From sequence record KX130862: a stretch of DNA of 64,000 nt, one strand, 5' to 3'. The stretch is from Shigella phage SHFML-26. The translations under genes were made by a program, and so were the position numbers. This document shows positions 1,157 through 50,120 of this stretch, in pieces (the first letter of the stretch is position 1; each line of letters opens with the position of its first letter). Below the pieces are notes generated by a model, which made no database searches, was not told where the DNA came from, and was given only the letters and a program-made list of their open reading frames with translations.

Positions 1157-1627
1157 TTAATCATGTTTCCACACCCCATCGGTATTTGACCAAAGTCGCT
1201 GATTATCTGATCCTCGCCACAGCTTTTTAGTCGGAAGATTTTTCTCATACTTCCCATCAATAATAACATCAACATATTTAAGCATTTCTAGCTGTTTAAT
1301 ATCTTCAAACTTATATCCTGTCCACAACCAAATGCTTTTATTGGGATAAAGATTTTTAATAGTTTGAACCACAGAGTGAATCACGTCTCTGTTATCAGGA
1401 TAAAGAGGGTCTCCTCCAGTTATAGTTAATCCTTCTATATAATCATTATTCAAACATTCAATCAATTGTTCTAGTGTTTCACCGGTGAATGGAATACCAT
1501 TTCTAGCATTCCATGTTGATTTATTATAACACCCTTCACATTTATGCAAACAACCTGTAACGAAAAGAACAGTTCTGCAACCAGGGCCATTCACAAAGCA
1601 GCACGGGTATATTCTGTCATAATTCAT
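1157..1627 (-). CDS. nrdG: anaerobic ribonucleotide reductase activating protein (radical SAM)
   Basis: 156 aa from MNYDRIYPCC; cysteine cluster CxxxCxxC-like (CLHKCEGC); immediately downstream of nrdD region as in T4. Confidence 0.85.
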   Translation of the reverse strand: MNYDRIYPCCFVNGPGCRTVLFVTGCLHKCEGCYNKSTWNARNGIPFTGETLEQLIECLNNDYIEGLTITGGDPLYPDNRDVIHSVVQTIKNLYPNKSIWLWTGYKFEDIKQLEMLKYVDVIIDGKYEKNLPTKKLWRGSDNQRLWSNTDGVWKHD

Positions 1628-2454
1628 AATAATATCCAATTTTTCCAAGCTTCATCAGTAGAATTACAGCGTTTTAGTATAAGATGTCTAGAAACTTTTA
1701 TGGCATTTGAGCACTTTTTAATTGAATCATATTTAATACCGTCAACTGAAACGGTTTTGCTAGTTGGAGAAATTTTTCCATACATTGGATTTTTTGAACC
1801 AACTTGAAGTCCTTTTAAAGCTTTTGAAAGCTTTTGTCTAGATTCCAATGACATGGGAGAATTCTTTTTACCTTCAATAATTCGCTTGCGATGAAGTTCG
1901 CGTTCTTCTTCACTCAAAGAATTGTAATATTTTTTAACACCGTTTGATATAGATAATTTATCTTTCTCAGACCGCTCTCCAGCTAATTTACTTCTAACAT
2001 CTTTTCGCTTCATAGCTATGCTTACGGCTTTATTTAAATTTGCTTGATGCTCTGGCGTACGTTTATATTTCTTTAAAGCACGTGAAATAGCTATTTTAGT
2101 TTCTTCTGTTCTCTTTTTACCTTTATTTGCTAAACTATTTTTGTGGCGATGTTCAAGTGTCTGTTCATAGGCAGTTCCACCTTTTCCACCAGGTTTAATA
2201 TTATATGTATTTTCTTTTAGACAATACTCTTCAGTTACAAGTTCAGCTTCTTTATCATACATTTGCTTTTCATTATCAAAAACATATAAAATTTCTTTAT
2301 AAAAATTTTTTCTACCATATTTTAATAAAGCAGCACGAATCAATGTTCCTGATCCCATATAACCGTCATTTATATTATCGGTGCTATGCGCACCGATATA
2401 TTCCTTTGAATTAATTATATTTGTTATTTTATAAATTATATAATACCTATGCAT
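1624..2454 (-). CDS. free-standing GIY-YIG homing endonuclease (Seg family)
   Basis: N-terminal YIIYKITN...YIGAHS...DGYMGSG GIY-YIG module plus basic C-terminal DNA-binding region; ATG 3 nt after nrdD stop. Confidence 0.8.
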   Translation of the reverse strand: MHRYYIIYKITNIINSKEYIGAHSTDNINDGYMGSGTLIRAALLKYGRKNFYKEILYVFDNEKQMYDKEAELVTEEYCLKENTYNIKPGGKGGTAYEQTLEHRHKNSLANKGKKRTEETKIAISRALKKYKRTPEHQANLNKAVSIAMKRKDVRSKLAGERSEKDKLSISNGVKKYYNSLSEEERELHRKRIIEGKKNSPMSLESRQKLSKALKGLQVGSKNPMYGKISPTSKTVSVDGIKYDSIKKCSNAIKVSRHLILKRCNSTDEAWKNWILL

Positions 2455-4264
2455 GTTTTACTCGTTTTACCATTTCTTTCATTTTACCTAAATTCCATGG
2501 AACAACGCTAGGAGTTCCAAGATATCCGCATGTTCTTCTTATTGTATTCATCTTTTTAGGATCAGTTTCTCCACAAATAGAACAAACAAATCCGTTTTCA
2601 GTAGGAGTCATTTCATGGGTACTTCCGCATGTAAAACACTTATCTACTGGCATGTTAACACCAAAATAATCTAAATGTTGTACAGCATAATCCCATACAG
2701 CCTCAAGACCTTTTAGGTTATTTTTCATATCAGGAAGTTCAACATAAGAAATGTGACCACCTGTCGCAATGAAATGATATGGCGCTTCACGAGAAATTTT
2801 TTCAAACGGAGTAATATTTTCTTCTACTGAAACGTGGAAACTATTAGTGTACCAGCCTTTATCGGTAACATCTTTTACACTTCCATATTTTTCTGTATCA
2901 AGTTTACAGAAGCGATAACAAAGGTTTTCAGCAGGAGTCGAATATAAACTAAAAGCAAATCCAGTTCTTTCAGTCCACTGTTTAAGATGAGCATTCATTT
3001 TAGTTAAAATTTCTTGTCCAATATCACGACCGACAAGAATATTCAATTCGTGAATACCAATGTATCCTAGGGACACTGAACTTCTACCATTTTTAAATAA
3101 CTCAATTATATCGTCATCAGGTTTAAGACGAACCCCGAATGCACCTTCTTGGTAAAGAATAGGAGCAACAGTCGCTTTAACTCCTTTTAAGGAACTAATT
3201 CTACACATCAAAGCTTCAAAACATAAATCCATTCGTTCATTGAATAATTCAACAAATTTCTGTTCATTGAACTGTGTTCCAATATAAGAATCTAACGCGA
3301 TGCGAGGAAGATTCAGTGTTACAACACCAAGATTATTACGTCCATCAAGAATTTCATTACCAGTCGAATCTTTCCATACGCTCAAGAAACTACGGCAACC
3401 CATTGGAGAAACAGGAATAGATGAACCAGTGATAGCTTTATTGTTCTTAGCTGAAATAATATCAGGATACATTCTTTTGCTTGCACACTCTAGAGCAAGC
3501 TGCTTAATATCATAGTTCGGATCGTCTTTATAAAGATTAACACCTTCTTCAACAAACATAACAAGCTTAGGGAAAATAGGAGTTATCCCATCACGACCAA
3601 GACCTTTAATACGATTTTTCAGAATTGCTTTCTGAATCATTCGTTCAGTCCAGTCAGTTCCTGTACCAAATGTAATTGTTACAAAAGGAGTCTGTCCGTT
3701 TGAACTAAAGAGAGTATTTACTTCATATTCATAAGCTTGGAATGCATCGTATACGTCTTTTTCTGTTTTAGATTGAGCATAATTTAACGCATCAGCGATT
3801 TGCCATTTTTCTGCATCCTCAATATGTTTTGCATAGGTGCGTTTAACATAAGGAGAAAGTACTTTATCTACATTAGCAAAAGTCGTTCCGCCGTATTGGT
3901 GAGAAGCAACCTGTGCAGTAATTTGTGCCATAATTGCAGTAGCAACGCCAATTGATTTAGGAGTTTCAATCTGCGCATTACCTAGCTTAAATCCGTTCTC
4001 AAGCATTCCTTTTAAATCTACTAAACAGCAATTAGTAAATGGAAGAGCAGGGGAATAATCAATATCGTGGAAATGAATAATTCCGCTTTCATGCGCTTTC
4101 ATAATAAAAGACGGGACCATATTTTTGGCAATGTGTTTAGACACAATACCAGCCATAAGGTCCCGTTGAGTTGGAAAAACACGAGAATCTTTATTAGCAT
4201 TCTCGTTTAAAAGGTCTTTATTAGTTTTATGAATCAATCCTTCAATTTCTTTTTCAATTGTCAT
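2447..4264 (-). CDS. nrdD: anaerobic ribonucleoside-triphosphate reductase, uninterrupted ORF
   Basis: 605-aa continuous ORF; glycyl-radical region RTCGYLG and C-terminal Cys cluster CFTCG...CSICG; matches T4 NrdD length. Confidence 0.9.
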   Translation of the reverse strand: MTIEKEIEGLIHKTNKDLLNENANKDSRVFPTQRDLMAGIVSKHIAKNMVPSFIMKAHESGIIHFHDIDYSPALPFTNCCLVDLKGMLENGFKLGNAQIETPKSIGVATAIMAQITAQVASHQYGGTTFANVDKVLSPYVKRTYAKHIEDAEKWQIADALNYAQSKTEKDVYDAFQAYEYEVNTLFSSNGQTPFVTITFGTGTDWTERMIQKAILKNRIKGLGRDGITPIFPKLVMFVEEGVNLYKDDPNYDIKQLALECASKRMYPDIISAKNNKAITGSSIPVSPMGCRSFLSVWKDSTGNEILDGRNNLGVVTLNLPRIALDSYIGTQFNEQKFVELFNERMDLCFEALMCRISSLKGVKATVAPILYQEGAFGVRLKPDDDIIELFKNGRSSVSLGYIGIHELNILVGRDIGQEILTKMNAHLKQWTERTGFAFSLYSTPAENLCYRFCKLDTEKYGSVKDVTDKGWYTNSFHVSVEENITPFEKISREAPYHFIATGGHISYVELPDMKNNLKGLEAVWDYAVQHLDYFGVNMPVDKCFTCGSTHEMTPTENGFVCSICGETDPKKMNTIRRTCGYLGTPSVVPWNLGKMKEMVKRVKHA

Positions 4265-20505: not shown

Positions 20506-20967
20506 TCATTGAGTTTTAATTACTGCTTTAGAAGCCTTTCCTGGTAAACGACGACTGTTGATAATTGCCATCCTGCATTGAAGTGACGGGTTTTTGAACT
20601 TCTCATTAGGCTTACAAACCGTAAATCCAAGCCAAAGATTTCCATCTGTGATTTCTAAACGTCCAGGACGATATTCAACCCCATCAATAAAATCCTCGTC
20701 AATGTCAGGACGCGGAGGCATACTCAGGAATTCATTAACTTCTAAAACATGGTCTTTTATTTTATGGAATAATTCAAAAACATATGTCTCATCAATCTCC
20801 CGTTGAATTGCACGATCAAGAAGATGTTGAGAATATTTTAGATGAAACGATGAGACTCCTGCTGCTTTTGATGCCTCACGAATCTCATTGTTAATTTGAC
20901 GAAACTCCGACTCAAAATGACGACGAAGCTTATTTCGACGGATAAAAACTTCTGTATTGATAGTCAT
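20506..20967 (-). CDS. regB: RegB site-specific endoribonuclease
   Basis: 153 aa; T4 RegB size and position. Confidence 0.75.
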   Translation of the reverse strand: MTINTEVFIRRNKLRRHFESEFRQINNEIREASKAAGVSSFHLKYSQHLLDRAIQREIDETYVFELFHKIKDHVLEVNEFLSMPPRPDIDEDFIDGVEYRPGRLEITDGNLWLGFTVCKPNEKFKNPSLQCRMAIINSRRLPGKASKAVIKTQ

Positions 20968-21571: not shown

Positions 21572-21785
21572 ATTTGACTTCCTCACCAGTACATAAATCG
21601 TATTCAACTAAACGAATAGGTTCATGAATGCCATATCCCTGAACAGAAATTTCTGTAGTAGGATAAATTCCATTAATATCACCCATGTTCCATGCTTCGT
21701 TAAATTGCTGTTCGCCTGAATTACTAAACCATTCGGCGAAAGCATTTAGCACATCTTCAGAACCTTCAATAATTATCTTTGCCAT
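21564..21785 (-). CDS. hypothetical small acidic protein
   Basis: 73-aa ORF. Confidence 0.45.
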   Translation of the reverse strand: MAKIIIEGSEDVLNAFAEWFSNSGEQQFNEAWNMGDINGIYPTTEISVQGYGIHEPIRLVEYDLCTGEEVKYD

Positions 21786-22147
21786 TACAAACTCTCGGTA
21801 AAGGTACGAGCGATAACATCGCGCTGCTGTTCCGGAGTCAGAGAGTTAAAGCGAACTGCATAACCGGATACACGGATGGTCAGCTGCGGATATTTTTCCG
21901 GATGCTTAACTGCATCTTCCAGAGTTTCACGACGCAGAACGTTAACGTTCAGGTGTTGACCACCTTCAATTTTAACTGTAGGCTGTTGCTCAATTTCAAT
22001 TTCACGGGCATGCAAACCGTAGAAAATTTCTGGGTCTACAAAAGAGTCCTCTTTAAAGGTTTTAGAGACAATAATTCGTGCTTGAATACCATCTTCAAAA
22101 TAAATAGTACCTTTATGTGTGCCTTCAAGAATTTGATATGCTTTCAT
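21785..22147 (-). CDS. autonomous glycyl-radical cofactor (GrcA/YfiD-like; T4 Y06I-like)
   Basis: C-terminal [29 protein letters not shown] glycyl-radical motif; 3' half visibly GC-richer than flanks. Confidence 0.85.
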
Positions 22148-22154
22148 ATAAACC

Positions 22155-22484
22155 TCAATTAGAAAATAAATTTATCCAAGATTGTTCTTTAATTAAAAAC
22201 GGCTCAGAATCATATGCCATTAAACTTTGCGTAATTAATCCTTTAAAAGGTCCATCAATAAATTCCATGGTAAAATATGGAATTTTATTCATTAGCCGTG
22301 CATTAGGAGCAGTGCACAAAACTCTGCATCCTTTGAATACGCCTTTTTGTAATTTGTATTGCTTAGGATAAAATTCGCTTAAAATGTTATTTTTTGCCAA
22401 AATTTCAAAATGATTCACCAATTTATTTTTAATAGTTTTTGGCGAAAAATAAAGATATTCGAAAAGCTGAGTGTCTGTCATCAT
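22155..22484 (-). CDS. hypothetical protein
   Basis: Start at [10 protein letters not shown]. Confidence 0.45.
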
Positions 22485-23068
22485 TGCATTCCGATTACGA
22501 AAAACTGCGGACGAGTAATACCACCAATGCAACATTTACTATTACAGCAGTGTTGCACAGTTTCAATATGAATATCGTAAATTTTATCCATATCAGGAGA
22601 TTTAACAGGCTCATCGATTATATACAAAATTCGCGAAAGAGATAAACCTCTGAACTTGCTTCCTTTATTACCGATAAAACTACGGACAGAATCAGTAAAT
22701 AAGCGGAATCGAATATCATCACTAGAATAACGAGAAAATTCTTTTTTAATGTGGCCTGCAGAAATTTTAGCGTAAGCTGAAGTATTAGAAAGAACAATAA
22801 CTGTTCCACCGTCATACAGCCAATTAGCAGCAAAGTTAGTCACAGCAGTTGATTTACCAGATTGGCGTCCACCATCTAGTCGAAGTGTACAATATTGTTT
22901 AAGCAAGTCTTCAAATGGTGGGGTATAATCGTTTTTACAAATTTCTTCTACTCTAGCATCAGAATGGTGTGTAAAAGCATTCATCAGGGATAGATAAGGA
23001 CCAGTTAAAAATGTTCTCATTTTATTCTCTCTAAATTTGGGCCATTCCATGGCACATGAATTGTCCAT
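22481..23068 (-). CDS. P-loop NTPase-like protein
   Basis: GGRQSGKST Walker A-like motif. Confidence 0.5.
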   Translation of the reverse strand: MDNSCAMEWPKFRENKMRTFLTGPYLSLMNAFTHHSDARVEEICKNDYTPPFEDLLKQYCTLRLDGGRQSGKSTAVTNFAANWLYDGGTVIVLSNTSAYAKISAGHIKKEFSRYSSDDIRFRLFTDSVRSFIGNKGSKFRGLSLSRILYIIDEPVKSPDMDKIYDIHIETVQHCCNSKCCIGGITRPQFFVIGMQ

Positions 23069-23656: not shown

Positions 23657-24073
23657 TTAAATGTAAATATTTTTACCGTAATACTTATACCAATGTGGTT
23701 TCATTAAAATTTTTTCATCAAGTCGTTGTTGACTCAATTTAATAGCTGATTTGCATGGATTATAATCATTTTTCCATTCTACTGGAATATCGCTGATGTC
23801 AGGAACTTCAGTATCTTTTATACTGAACCTGCGTTTTAAGCATTCCGTTATAATGTCTGATTGACGCTTTCGCAAAAATTCTAACTTATCGTAAAAGAAC
23901 GTAACATGACCAGAACCTAAAATAAACTTGGAAGATATTTTAAAATCTTTAACCCGTTTACCATTTGCCACATGTTTACGAACTATACCAAAAACACGTG
24001 GCAATTCACGGTATTCTGCGATTAAATGTTGATCAGCAAGTTCAGATACTAAAGTCAAATTAATACGAGTCAT
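23657..24073 (-). CDS. denV: endonuclease V (pyrimidine dimer DNA glycosylase)
   Basis: 138 aa, [17 protein letters not shown]...EYRELPRVF; diverged from T4 DenV. Confidence 0.85.
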
Positions 24074-24663: not shown

Positions 24664-25119
24664 TTAAAAGAGGCTGTTCATTATTCGGTAAAGTGAAGGA
24701 CCCATCACATATTGCCACTGAGTACGAGGAATAAGAGCAAAAGCATCCATCTCTGGAATCATAACGCCATCTTTATTTTCAAAATAAGACTCGCAGCGGC
24801 AATTTCTAAACATCTCATGCTCTACTGGAATCGTATAGTAAAATAGCTGTAAGTCTTTATTACTAGAATATTTAAATACACCTAGGTCTTCTAGAAGGTC
24901 TGGATTATAATTGCTAAAGCCAGTCTCTTCTAAACATTCTCTTCGTGCTGCATCTAGCGCGCTTAAATCAGAATTTTCTACACGGCCCTTTGGAATATCC
25001 CAGCGATGGGCCATCATTCCAGGCTTACGAGAACCGGTAACCCGACCCATAAATAAATCTTTATCTTCTGTCATAAAGATAATACCAGCTGATAATGTTT
25101 TCATTTTAATTTCCTGCAT
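24664..25119 (-). CDS. nudE: Nudix hydrolase
   Basis: Nudix box GRVENSDLSALDAARRECLEETGF; 151 aa. Confidence 0.8.
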   Translation of the reverse strand: MQEIKMKTLSAGIIFMTEDKDLFMGRVTGSRKPGMMAHRWDIPKGRVENSDLSALDAARRECLEETGFSNYNPDLLEDLGVFKYSSNKDLQLFYYTIPVEHEMFRNCRCESYFENKDGVMIPEMDAFALIPRTQWQYVMGPSLYRIMNSLF

Positions 25120-28439: not shown

Positions 28440-28515
28440 TGGTCGAGGCAGTAGGGATCGAACCTACGACCCAGGACTTAGAAGGTCCTTGCTCTTCCTT
28501 CTGAGCTATGCCCCG
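28440..28515 (-). tRNA. tRNA-Arg (anticodon UCU), CCA encoded
   Basis: Hand-folded cloverleaf: acceptor CGGGGCA/TGCCTCG, anticodon loop CUUCUAA, T-loop GTAGG-TTCGATC-CCTAC, 3' ACCA. Confidence 0.85.
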
Positions 28516-28518
28516 TAA

Positions 28519-29184
28519 TTAAAATTTCATTTTTCGACCTTTAAACCATCCTTCTGGAATTGGGTCAGTTTTCTTAATACGTTTAGAAACTTTTTCATCT
28601 AATGAATGAATCCACATCATACCAAATTGGGAATTCTTTTCACCTTTCTGGTGATTATTTTTAGCGTGAATTTCTTTCATTTTATTAATAGTTTCATCTG
28701 AATGGGACTTACCCAAGAAAGATTTAGTATTTGAAAATTTCTCTCTATACTTAGGATTATCCCAAAGCTGTTTAAACCTTTCTGAACCCATTTTACGATA
28801 TTTTTCTTTAAGGTCTGGGTCGTTCTCAAATCTGGTTTTAAAAGCGGCAGCTCCTTTTAAGGAAGCTTCTTTCTTTTTATCCAAATATTCTTTAGTGTTT
28901 AAATGGTCCCAACCACCTTCACCACCTAATTTCAAATTATAAACATCAGGGCGCTTTAAAAACTCTTCAGTCACAATATTCTTTTCTGACTCAAACATAG
29001 AGGTTTTATCGTCAAAGAACTCTAATATTTCTTTAGAAAAATTTTCTATACCATACTTATCTTGGGCTCTTTTTAATAATTTACCAGAACCCATATATCC
29101 ATCATCTAAATTTTCAGTTGAATGGGCGCCTATATAAATTTTATTATTAATTTTATTTGTTATTTTATAAGTGTAATAGAACAT
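28519..29184 (-). CDS. segB: GIY-YIG homing endonuclease SegB
   Basis: 221 aa; YYTYKITN...YIGAHS...DGYMGSG; inside tRNA cluster as in T4. Confidence 0.85.
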   Translation of the reverse strand: MFYYTYKITNKINNKIYIGAHSTENLDDGYMGSGKLLKRAQDKYGIENFSKEILEFFDDKTSMFESEKNIVTEEFLKRPDVYNLKLGGEGGWDHLNTKEYLDKKKEASLKGAAAFKTRFENDPDLKEKYRKMGSERFKQLWDNPKYREKFSNTKSFLGKSHSDETINKMKEIHAKNNHQKGEKNSQFGMMWIHSLDEKVSKRIKKTDPIPEGWFKGRKMKF

Positions 29185-29225
29185 AAATATCTCCTATTTC
29201 TAAGAGTATTTATGTTCTCAAAATA

Positions 29226-29297
29226 TGGCCCTGGGTGGAATTGAACCACCATCTGGCGATTATGAGTCGCTTGCTTGAACCTTCCAGCTACAGGGCC
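29226..29297 (-). tRNA. tRNA-Ile (anticodon CAU, AUA-reading type)
   Basis: Acceptor GGCCCTG/CAGGGCC, anticodon loop CUCAUAA, T-arm GGTGG-TTCAATT-CCACC. Confidence 0.8.
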
Positions 29298-29303
29298 TTG
29301 ATA

Positions 29304-29376
29304 TGCTGATTGACGGAATCGAACCGCCGACCTTCTCATTACAAGTGAGTTGCTCTACCTACTGAGCTAAATCAGC
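29304..29376 (-). tRNA. tRNA-Thr (anticodon UGU)
   Basis: Acceptor GCTGATT/AATCAGC, D-arm GCTC-AGTAGGTA-GAGC, anticodon loop CUUGUAA. Confidence 0.85.
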
Positions 29377-29383
29377 GAAATTA

Positions 29384-29470
29384 CGGAGGCGATAGGATTT
29401 GAACCTATGAGTCGCCGGAGCGACTGCCGGTTTTCAAGACCGGTGCATTAAACCACTCTGCCACGCCTCC
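29384..29470 (-). tRNA. tRNA-Ser (anticodon UGA), long variable arm
   Basis: Acceptor GGAGGCG/CGCCTCC, anticodon loop CUUGAAA, extended variable arm. Confidence 0.85.
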
Positions 29471-29472
29471 AG

Positions 29473-29546
29473 TCTCCGCGGCAGGATTTGAACCTGCGAC
29501 ATTCTGCTCCCAAAGCAGACGCTCTACCAAACTGAGCTACACGAAG
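29473..29546 (-). tRNA. tRNA-Pro (anticodon UGG)
   Basis: D-arm GCTC-AGTTGGTA-GAGC, anticodon loop UUUGGGA; 2 nt from tRNA-Ser. Confidence 0.85.
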
Positions 29547-29558
29547 TAAATTAAATTT

Positions 29559-29630
<72 letters not shown>

Positions 29631-29636
29631 AAACTT

Positions 29637-29723
29637 TGGTACGAGAAGTGGGACTCGAACCCACAAGGAAATCATTCCGCAGCATTTTAAGTGCTGTGCC
29701 TTTACCAATTTGACCATTCTCGC
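29637..29723 (-). tRNA. tRNA-Leu (anticodon UAA), long variable arm, CCA encoded
   Basis: Acceptor GCGAGAA/TTCTCGT, anticodon loop CUUAAAA, 3' ACCA. Confidence 0.85.
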
Positions 29724-29724
29724 G

Positions 29725-29797
29725 CTGGGAATAAAGGACTCGAACCTTTGCATCCTGGAATCAAAATCCAGTGCCTTACCAACTTGGCTAATTCCCA
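29725..29797 (-). tRNA. tRNA-Gln (anticodon UUG)
   Basis: Acceptor TGGGAAT/ATTCCCA, anticodon loop UUUUGAU; 1 nt from tRNA-Leu. Confidence 0.85.
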
Positions 29798-47908: not shown

Positions 47909-48567
47909 TGAGTTTACTTAATAATAAAGCGGGAGTTATTTCCCGCTTAGCAGATTTTCTTGGTTTTAGAACTAAGAAAAATGATATTTCGGTTATGAAT
48001 AATCAACCGGTAGGCGCTGTAACAATTTCACAAATAGCAAAAGGTTTTTATGACTCAAATGTAGAATCTGCTATCAATGATGTTAGAAATATGGCAGAGC
48101 AACAGGTTGGAGCTGTATTAATTAATATAAGCGGCGTATCTCCTACTGGCGTGCAACAAACCGACTATTGGTCATTTGAAGGAACTGTTACTGATACTTC
48201 AGCCAAACCAGGTGACCCAGTTATTGTTAACATGTTTGGTATTCCAGTTAAAGCTACTAATGGAATGACTTCAATTGAATTTACTAGTGCTGTTAGAACA
48301 GCTCTACAGGAAATGGTTGTAAAATTTATTGCAATTGATTCATTTGAAGACCATCCTACTATAGGGAATAAAATACAAGTTAAGTATTTAGATAACCAAG
48401 AACATATCTTAGAGCAATACTCTGATAAAGGAATTACTTTCAAACAAGAAATAATTTCTCCTTCTAAACCCGGGTATGGAACTTGGCAATTATTAGGTGC
48501 GCAAACTGTTACGCTAGATAGTCACACACAACCTACAGTATTTTATTATTTTGAGAGAATAGCATGA
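47908..48567 (+). CDS. 11: baseplate wedge subunit and tail pin gp11
   Basis: 219 aa from [12 protein letters not shown]. Confidence 0.9.
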
Positions 48568-50120
48568 GTAACAATACATATCAGCACGTATCAAATGAAT
48601 CAAAATATGTTAAATTCGATCCTACTGGATCGAATTTTCCTGGCACTGTTACGACAGTACAGTCTGCATTATCAAAAATAAGTAATATCGGCGTAAATGG
48701 TATTCCTGATGCAACTATGGAAGTTAAAGGAATAGCAATGATTGCATCAGAGCAAGAGGTTTTAGATGGAACAAATAATTCTAAAATCGTTACACCAGCT
48801 ACATTAGCAACAAGATTATTGTATCCAAACGCTACTGAAACTAAATATGGTTTAACGCGCTATTCAACAAATGAAGAAACATTAGAAGGCTCAGATAATA
48901 ATTCATCAATAACGCCTCAAAAACTGAAATACCATACTGATGATGTGTTCCGAAATAGATATTCATCTGAGTCATCAAACGGGGTTATTAAAATATCATC
49001 TACGCCTGCAGCTTTGGCTGGTGTCGATGATACTACGGCGATGACTCCGTTGAAAACCCAAAAACTTGCAATAAAATTAATTTCACAAATAGCTCCTTCA
49101 GAAGACACTGCAACAGAATCTGTGAGAGGAGTAGTTCAATTATCTACTGTTGCACAAACTCGTCAAGGAACTCTCCGTGAAGGATATGCAATTTCCCCGT
49201 ATACCTTTATGAATTCTGTTGCAACACAAGAATATAAGGGTGTTATACGTCTAGGAACACAAGCAGAAATTAATAATAATTTGGGGGATGTTGCAGTAAC
49301 AGGTGAAACACTAAATGGTCGAGGAGCTACTGGTTCTATGCGTGGAGTAGTAAAATTAACGACGCAAGCTGGTATTGCTCCTGAAGGTGATAGCTCTGGG
49401 GCATTAGCCTGGAACGCAGATGTAATTAATACTCGTGGTGGACAAACTATTAATGGTTCTTTAAATTTAGACCATCTTACAGCAAATGGAATTTGGTCGC
49501 GCGGCGGAATGTGGAAAAATGGCGATCAACCTGTTGCCACTGAAAGATATGCGTCCGAACGGGTTCCGGTTGGAACTATTATGATGTTTGCGGGTGATTC
49601 AGCACCTCCAGGTTGGATTATGTGTCATGGTGGAACTGTGTCAGGAGACCAATATCCTGATTATAGAAACACGGTTGGAACAAGATTTGGCGGGGATTGG
49701 AATAATCCAGGGATTCCTGATATGCGAGGTCTTTTCGTCAGAGGAGCGGGCACCGGCGGTCATATTTTAAATCAACGAGGACAAGATGGTTATGGGAAGG
49801 ATAGACTTGGTGTAGGATGTGATGGAATGCATGTTGGCGGTGTTCAAGCACAGCAAATATCATACCATAAACATGCTGGTGCCTGGGGGGAAAATGGAAA
49901 TAACAGAGGTTATGCACCGTTTGGCGCATCTAATGGCAATGGATATTTGGGCAATGGTAGAAGCGCCGACTGGGACAACCATTTGTTCTTTACTAATGAC
50001 GGATTTGAAATGGGTGGTCCTCGTGACTCGTTCGGCACGTTAAATCGCGAAGGATTAATTGGTTATGAAACTAGACCATGGAATATATCATTAAACTATA
50101 TTATTAAAATTCATTACTAA
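48564..50120 (+). CDS. 12: short tail fiber gp12
   Basis: 518 aa; C-terminal receptor-binding region with HKH motif. Confidence 0.9.

Follow-up and report, generated by a model that had tools for sequence, protein, structure and literature searches.

A host-like grcA segment in the glycyl radical cofactor gene vs.6 of Shigella phage SHFML-26 and its T4-like relatives

The sequence analyzed here is a 64,000-nucleotide stretch of the genome of Shigella phage SHFML-26 (record KX130862; hereafter the window), which carries a small gene corresponding to the known T4 gene vs.6 (protein Y06I), the phage counterpart of the autonomous glycyl radical cofactor GrcA (YfiD) of Escherichia coli. We find that this gene is a mosaic, in which a phage-type 5′ half is joined to a 172-bp tract that is almost identical to the grcA gene of E. 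coli, and that related phages of Klebsiella carry, at the same place, a tract resembling the grcA of K. pneumoniae. Very probably, this pattern arose because host grcA has served repeatedly as the template for homologous gene conversion of a phage homologue that is old and diverged. Both the gene and its biochemistry were known before from T4; it is the evolutionary behavior that stands out. An earlier comparative study listed vs.6 only as a conserved open reading frame (ORF) with a match to the Gly_radical family (Nolan 2006), and we found no paper in the searchable literature that describes the nucleotide mosaic or its tracking of the host, although an earlier mention is possible.

A previous sequence-only reading of the window had proposed that the C-terminal 60 or so residues of the protein match GrcA, that the DNA encoding them (about 21785-21965) is richer in G+C than its flanks, and that the N-terminal half is AT-rich and only loosely GrcA-like. 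Residues 61-120 are in fact identical to residues 68-127 of E. coli GrcA at all 60 positions. At the DNA level, gene positions 179-363 matched grcA with 96.8-97.3% identity in every one of 5426 complete E. coli genomes searched with BLASTN, and the first 178 nt of the gene gave no match in the same genomes. E. coli grcA has two common alleles, with either CGT or CGC at a single synonymous position of the tract (gene position 219). Relative to the SK1144-type (CGT) allele, gene positions 179-350 agree at 171 of 172 bases, with a perfect run of 151 nt (window 21819-21969). A codon alignment with E. coli grcA contained 106 differences in 180 positions of the 5′ part versus 6 in 180 of the 3′ part (Fisher p = 1e-33). 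The composition changes at the same point: G+C is 0.48 in 21785-21969 versus 0.34 in 21970-22147, against a window mean of 0.355, and only 0.85% of the 185-nt windows in the 64 kb reach 0.48. G+C at third codon positions is 0.43 in the 3′ half versus 0.22 in the 5′ half (phage mean 0.23), and, ranked by how phage-typical their codons are, only 0.4% of 60-codon windows lie as low as the 3′ half. Here CTG encodes five of six leucines and CCG all three prolines, codons that the phage otherwise uses at 6% and 14%. The earlier description of the two halves is thus borne out, and its coordinates for the host-like DNA were right to within a few bases.

To identify the donor, we compared a 168-nt core of the tract (GGQH...RTFT) with grcA from 80 host species together with E. 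coli and K. pneumoniae. The core was 98.2% identical to E. coli grcA in the window and 99.4% identical in T4. The next hosts belonged to another Escherichia species (97.6-98.8%), and every other genus reached at most 92%. The paralogous candidates pflB (79%) and tdcE (76%) were rejected as donors in favor of grcA at 97%. When all 64 kb were compared with the 5426 E. coli genomes by megablast, 21781-21969 was the only segment among the matches listed, and no match lay past window position 25000. These comparisons support a derivation of the 3′ half of vs.6 from host grcA by recombination.

The 5′ half behaves differently. It has 41% nucleotide identity to E. coli grcA and phage-typical codon usage, and its product is seven residues shorter than the corresponding part of E. 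coli GrcA. Alone it gave no protein-family match in a search of Pfam/NCBIfam-type profiles. However, when eight phage and ten host N-terminal halves were aligned as profiles with hhalign, they matched with a probability of 92.6% (E = 4.4e-7, 29% identity over 48 columns), and phage GrcA forms with an intermediate N-terminal sequence were also found. On these two grounds, vs.6 in its full length is a homologue of grcA, old and diverged and present in many T4-like phages, and not a fusion of unrelated parts. Between Tequatrovirus and Mosigvirus, nonsynonymous divergence (dN) in the 5′ half is 0.04 versus a synonymous divergence (dS) of 0.34, so this half is under purifying selection.

The assignment to vs.6, also made in the sequence-only reading, agrees with all further comparisons. 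The gene is 98.3% identical in DNA to the T4 copy over its full length, and one Tequatrovirus record is 100% identical to it. The proteins differ at a single residue in the N-terminal half (Q54 for P54 of Y06I), and functionally there is nothing to tell the two genes apart. In both phages the gene lies between denV (23657-24073 in the window) and regB (20506-20967), within a minus-strand neighborhood of T4 lysozyme-, denV- and regB-type ORFs. It is a small stand-alone ORF, in keeping with a cofactor protein of about 14 kDa; it has its own start and stop among small phage ORFs and does not form the C-terminal part of a large glycyl radical enzyme. Its stop codon shares bases with the start of the following ORF (TAATG), and the GAGG preceding the gene overlaps the stop of the upstream ORF (22155-22535). 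Other phage records label the gene vs.6 or autonomous glycyl radical cofactor. Residues 60-101 of the protein match PF01228 (Gly_radical) with 67 bits against a cut-off of 22.2, and residues 20-120 match positions 25-126 of TIGR04365 (spare_glycyl) with 154.9 bits (E = 1.2e-45). The closest relatives of solved structure are YfiD (6OWR, 9e-42) and the C-terminus of pyruvate formate-lyase (PFL; 5e-26). The radical-glycine motif RVSGYAV is the same in alignments of the phage protein, GrcA and PflB, and by residue count Gly95 equals Gly102 of GrcA, the counterpart of the PFL radical glycine Gly734, which is the site of both the radical and oxygen cleavage (PMC8683613). E. coli GrcA (6OWR; TIGR04365; IPR011140) has the same two-part layout, an N-terminal half, disordered in YfiD, followed by a structured radical domain. 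Unlike E. coli grcA, the gene described here resides in a lytic phage, within a run of closely spaced phage ORFs on the same strand.

Table 1. Positions of vs.6, its parts and the anaerobic ribonucleotide reductase genes in the window
Feature	Position	Strand	Basis
vs.6/Y06I-type autonomous glycyl radical cofactor, 120 amino acids	21785..22147	(-)	ORF list and DNA identity to T4
Phage-type 5′ half, from codon 1 through the first base of codon 60	21970..22147	(-)	G+C, codons, low identity to grcA
Host-derived tract, gene positions 179-350 (residues 61-117 and last two bases of codon 60)	21798..21969	(-)	171/172 bases equal to E. coli SK1144-type grcA
3′ end of the gene, phage-type again; right-hand edge of the converted tract	21785..21797 (~13 nt)	(-)	Alignment of phage and host 3′ ends
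Codon of Gly95 (motif RVSGYAV)	21863..21865	(-)	Computed position
Shine-Dalgarno-like GAGG, 5 nt upstream of the ATG	22153..22156	(-)	Read from sequence; putative function
NrdD, 605 amino acids, one uninterrupted ORF	2447-4264	(-)	Pfam NRDD (571 bits) and Gly_radical
NrdG, radical SAM activase, just downstream of NrdD	1157-1648	(-)

The sequence-only reading had further suggested a recent recombination with the host gene. An origin from host grcA held up; a recent event in this particular phage did not, as T4 and isolates of Tequatrovirus, Mosigvirus and Carettavirus share the mosaic. T4 vs.6 is the same gene at the same place, divided in the same way into 5′ and 3′ portions, and its tract is even closer to the host: it contains a perfect run of 178 nt to an extant E. 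coli allele, compared with 151 nt in the window. Relative to T4, the tract in the window has one extra mismatch to E. coli within 179-350 (GAT at 330) and two more at its 3′ edge (ACC at 351 and GAG at 354). The left junction, just after the phage-specific AAA A of "GTT AAA ATT" and before GAA GGT GGT, is the same in T4, RB10, and Mosigvirus and Carettavirus isolates. The right junction lies about 7-10 nt before the stop codon in the E. coli phages versus about 17-26 nt in Jiaodavirus; the gene in the window ends in ACC GAG AGT TTG TAA versus ACT GAA AGC CTG TAA in the host, and the GAG AGT is also present in phage lineages that lack a host-derived tract. T4 and other independent phage records, more than 600 in all, have the same junctions, as do metagenome contigs 130-168 kb long.

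In Jiaodavirus, a genus of Klebsiella phages, the 5′ half of the gene groups with that of T4, and the tract is 95.8-99.4% identical to grcA of K. pneumoniae, with perfect runs of 107-140 nt; its identity to the tract in the window is about 87%. The Jiaodavirus tract also carries the two amino acid differences of K. pneumoniae (E/L and K/E: LEDAVKH versus LLDAVEH). Used as a query, the K. pneumoniae tract retrieved 106 phage records at 95-99% and 28 at 90-95%. We then analyzed a quartet composed of the window, phage Kp122, E. coli and K. pneumoniae. In the 5′ half, informative sites grouped phages against hosts (61:0:2), and in the 3′ half they grouped each phage with its own host (16:1:0), so that the two halves of one gene give conflicting phylogenetic groupings. 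By this evidence K. pneumoniae is the donor of the tract for most Jiaodavirus. The mosaic is an ancestral property, and apparently a recurring one, in several groups of enterobacterial T4-like phages.

Other lineages show the gene without recent conversion. In Karamvirus (CC31), Pseudotevenvirus, a related unclassified Raoultella phage, Krischvirus RB49, and T5-like and RaK2-like phages, the 3′ half is 66-85% identical in DNA to every host tested, although it encodes the same near-invariant radical domain. In five representatives that were checked, no stretch identical to E. coli is longer than 11-20 nt, and those homologues that occur in other E. coli phages are 74-76% identical to E. coli. 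The neighborhood of the gene is similar in the T4-like genera checked (Karamvirus, Jiaodavirus and Pseudotevenvirus), and unconverted homologues with a T4-type N-terminal half have an ordinary phage composition (G+C 0.40-0.50). Identity of the tract to E. coli grcA (97-100%) exceeds that to homologues in other phage genera (66-87%).

To assess how the tract has evolved within phage groups, we compared diversity in the two halves of the gene, and the pattern is opposite in the two sets. Among 15 E. coli phage genes from three genera, 32 of 178 sites segregate in the 5′ half versus 13 of 172 in the tract (p = 0.004), and nucleotide diversity is four times lower in the tract (0.065 versus 0.016). 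Among ten Jiaodavirus genes the counts are 6 of 178 versus 26 of 160 (p = 6e-5), and diversity is five times higher in the tract (0.011 versus 0.059). When metagenomes were scanned for a pattern that bridges the phage-type junction, a further contig (L183) was identified, which shares with isolate ATCCa and with phiKp_22 a 5′ half 98% identical to that of Kp122 (98.3% for L183). Its tract has Raoultella-type states at 11 of the 18 sites that separate K. pneumoniae from a Raoultella genome, compared with 2 of 18 in Kp122. ATCCa shows the same pattern at the diagnostic sites (11 of 18), the tract of phiKp_22 was observed solely through its 99.4% match with that of L183, and pzk-kv6-1 and Raoultella phage Ra_O-2 contain patchy versions of it.

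A stronger model would be that the tract is in continuous concerted evolution with the host chromosome, being re-copied from the grcA of whatever species is the current host. We hold this extension tentatively, at a little short of an even chance. It predicts the contrast observed: where phages are confined to E. coli, the tract should vary little and equal the host allele, and in Jiaodavirus, members of which were isolated on several Klebsiella and Raoultella species, it should show high, patchy diversity made up of host alleles. An alternative to repeated conversion is that a single conversion from the host, in an ancestor of the E. coli phages, was followed by spread from phage to phage among genera in co-infections; this spread alone would account for the low divergence of the tract, and exchange with the host would not be continuing. 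The left breakpoint is common to all E. coli phages, T4-like phages recombine freely with each other (PMC1524935), and the contrast in dS is modest (0.34 in the 5′ half versus 0.17-0.26 in whole 3′ halves, from 15 sequences), each of which such a history would accommodate. However, the tract equals the E. coli allele in 5 of the 15 E. coli phages, including T4 (a Tequatrovirus) and phiE142 (a Carettavirus), and these two differ 9 nt upstream of their identical tract and again immediately downstream of it, the genera being about 9% apart beside the tract. The limits of the exchanged segment therefore coincide with the limits of homology to the host, as expected if the host was the template but not if phages exchanged the tract with one another. 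Moreover, both states of the E. coli CGT/CGC polymorphism at position 219 are present among the phages, and a single conversion leaves the several host-type alleles within Jiaodavirus unexplained. We therefore regard this alternative as improbable.

Several points nevertheless weigh against repeated conversion or limit its reach. Spread of one converted tract among the E. coli phages retains a small probability, and the case for conversion that is still ongoing draws on population patterns in small samples of 15 and 10 sequences. In RB49 and the T5-like phages, which also infect E. coli, the gene is unconverted; growth on this host is therefore not enough to bring conversion about. No Salmonella-like tract was present among the phages searched, in which the best match to the 3′ half of Salmonella grcA was 83.8%. 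For the Raoultella-like Jiaodavirus tract of L183, the best match in the host panel is 95%, and in a plasmid collection searched for a donor the best match was K. pneumoniae at 92.1%. The TIGR04365 score of 154.9 bits is below the NCBIfam equivalog cut-off for GrcA (170), a shortfall due to the divergence of the N-terminal half. Finally, the conversions might bring a selective benefit, but they may instead be largely neutral rather than adaptive, because the protein sequence of the radical domain is almost invariant across hosts.

Explanations that dispense with host-to-phage transfer fare worse than either history of conversion. The near-invariance of the radical domain in hosts and phages, together with the host-preferred codons of the tract, could in principle reflect convergence on the same optimal codons in the same cell, with no recombination at all. 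But across this segment, host species under the same constraint are still 8-17% divergent from E. coli, the unconverted copies in other E. coli phages are no closer than noted above, and E. coli- or K. pneumoniae-specific synonymous states are matched at 16 of 17 informative sites. Since protein constraint by itself leaves identity at a baseline of 66-85%, codon convergence could not have produced perfect runs of 151-178 nt, and we give this explanation almost no credence. The reverse transfer, in which E. coli acquired the 3′ half of grcA from a T4-like phage, is similarly hard to credit. Identity alone has no direction, and two-way exchange has been reported for psbA of cyanophages (PMC1484495); yet divergence among host grcA genes is even along their length (Fisher p 0.23-0.78), with the segment differing between host species about as much as the rest of the gene, whereas the two halves of the phage genes differ sharply (p 1e-28 to 1e-36). 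The composition of the tract is also host-type and an outlier in the phage, not in the host, and every phage group matches its own host species. The homogeneity of the host genes and the compositional anomaly in the phage therefore establish that the transfer was clearly from host to phage. An assembly chimera or contamination with host DNA, a conceivable source of any host-identical stretch in a lytic phage, can be dismissed given the recurrence of the junctions in the independent records and large contigs described above and a reading frame unbroken across both junctions.

These observations provide the basis for a model of conversion at vs.6. In the E. coli phages, about 172 bp encoding the structured radical domain have been replaced by host grcA sequence, very probably through homologous gene conversion, and most plausibly when the recombination machinery of an infecting phage copied from pieces of the host chromosome. 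Host DNA is broken up by T4-like phages, whose own replication proceeds through recombination (PMC1524935). The tract would be bounded on both sides where the phage and host genes are too different to pair; both junctions lie at the edges of pairable similarity, which fits homologous gene conversion. We speculate that a first, rare event on sequence of about 80% identity created a near-perfect 170-bp target, on which later events would have been easy. The same replacement has occurred from other donors in the Klebsiella phages and appears to recur within each phage group, with the tract tracking the host species and the 5′ half tracking the phage lineage. The left breakpoint, at GrcA residue 67/68, is near a boundary between protein domains: residues 1-60 of YfiD are disordered and aid activation and binding to cleaved PFL, and residues 61-127 have the fold of PFL 693-759 (PMC8683613).

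As for function, T4 Y06I is described as receiving a glycyl radical on its conserved glycine from the PFL activase (PflA) and as docking into host PFL that has been cut by oxygen at Gly734, thereby restoring the enzyme (Wagner 2001, as reported in PMC8683613). By analogy, given the one-residue difference, the protein encoded in the window probably has the same function, the rescue of oxygen-cleaved host PFL, and would keep fermentative production of acetyl-CoA and formate going in the infected cell. The sequence-only reading had linked the gene to the phage NrdD, for which the protein would serve as a spare part. NrdD and its activase NrdG are encoded in the window, and NrdD, itself a glycyl radical enzyme, is subject to cleavage by oxygen. 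Involvement in nucleotide metabolism was conjectured in an early comparative paper (PMC1524935), and spare parts for other such enzymes have been speculated on (PMC8683613). The comparisons did not support this link: BLASTP of the vs.6 protein against the NrdD of the window found no significant similarity (E = 3.8), and no NrdD chain was present among PDB matches at E <= 0.001, where the C-terminus of PFL scored 5e-26. The radical domain is, moreover, a literal copy of that of host GrcA, whose demonstrated partner is PFL, and the biochemistry of Y06I, to the extent that it is reported from Wagner 2001 in PMC8683613, covers PFL only. We consider a role with NrdD quite unlikely.

The nrdD gene of T4 (sunY) carries a group I intron. 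The nrdD gene of the window, judging from its ORF, appears to be without one.

T4-type phages carry a modified cytosine, hydroxymethylcytosine, and lytic phages containing this base are generally regarded as closed to host DNA. In vs.6, a strictly lytic type of phage that degrades the DNA of its host nevertheless holds a 172-bp stretch with up to 100% identity to a living host allele. A parallel is found in psbA and psbD of marine cyanophages, which, like vs.6, are metabolic genes of T4-like phages in which G+C is patchy and some segments cluster with the host genes, not with those of phages (PMC1484495), and both cases are explained by recombination between host and phage within the gene (Zeidner 2005; Sullivan 2006, PMC1484495). 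Unlike psbA and psbD, vs.6 has a named donor species, identity of up to 100% to a living host allele, enterobacterial hosts and two breakpoints, each located to a few bases; its transfer, moreover, ran clearly from host to phage. The cyanophage exchanges are hard to test experimentally; vs.6 offers a parallel, cleanly bounded host-to-phage gene conversion in a system that is tractable in the laboratory, T4 on E. coli. If conversion is ongoing, its rate and genetic requirements should be directly measurable, and the tract would be a built-in record, or marker, of the recent natural host of a phage, independent of the strain used for isolation. A question that follows is whether the combination of a phage-specific N-terminal half and a host-exact radical domain affects competition with host GrcA for cleaved PFL.

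Citrobacter phage PhiZZ23 (H135), isolated on Citrobacter rodentium, and Serratia phage PhiZZ30 (H144), isolated on Serratia, have tracts 87-88% identical to K. pneumoniae grcA, the same as the E. coli phages. This suggests that their tracts are of E. coli type, in which case the tract may indicate a natural host that differs from the strain used for isolation.

Further GrcA-like genes were encountered outside the groups discussed so far. The T5-like Epseptimavirus and relatives (L088, L138-L163), which are phages of Salmonella and E. coli, have a stand-alone gene of this kind with a very different N-terminal half (MKAYQNLKSGVINLVH..) and a 3′ half 70-77% identical to any host, and hence unconverted. 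A separate phage family, represented by viral and metagenome contigs L114-L119, L126, L182, L190, L192, L195 and L205-L210, has an N-terminal half (..FSNKRDVHYGDLSGSIWLIE.NKARCLVAKEV.EDTV..) between those of host GrcA and the T4 type, and 3′ halves with 79-86% identity to Haemophilus or Pantoea grcA. Four metagenome contigs (L188, L196, L200 and L204), three of them large (240-514 kb), combine a host-like N-terminus (..NNSFWLLD...ARCLVSK..) with a phage-like 'QPTVKV' junction, and their core is 86% identical to grcA of H. parainfluenzae; these genes may be bacterial, from unsampled Pasteurellaceae, or may belong to very large phages. The IMG/VR contig L124 is 91% identical to a Yersinia grcA and may be a bacterial grcA on a short contig.

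Annotation of the gene varies between records, which call it 'pyruvate formate-lyase', 'ribonucleotide reductase subunit' or 'acetyltransferase-like'. In T4 record KJ477684.1 (L002; 2501-3076), vs.6 and the next small ORF are unannotated though their sequence is intact. The gene is broken in Mosigvirus vB_Eco_F31 (OP870147.1, L091; 401-764), which has one extra base and an annotation as two ORFs (401-571 and 555-764), and in the IMG/VR Jiaodavirus record L121, where the ORF starts only 80 amino acids before the stop; each is either a pseudogene or a sequencing error. On the host side, grcA of K. aerogenes NCTC10006 (L095) is annotated in a shortened form (300-623). Several PLSDB 'plasmids' are whole or partial chromosomes (CP125156.1 (L094), NZ_OL790696.1 and others), for example a 5.37-Mb K. 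pneumoniae 'plasmid', and the K. pneumoniae grcA used here was taken from such a mislabelled chromosome.

Elsewhere in the window, most of the remaining GC-rich 185-nt windows fall in a cluster of eight tRNA genes (28440-29797, minus strand; Arg, Met, Thr, Ser, Pro, Gly, Leu and Gln). Another GC-rich region (49465-50056) is the Gly-rich C-terminal part of a 518-residue ORF (48564-50120, plus strand), which we take to be a short tail fibre. This region has no match in the E. coli genomes, so its G+C content is attributed to amino acid composition and not to host origin; both spots were considered as candidate host DNA, and neither is.

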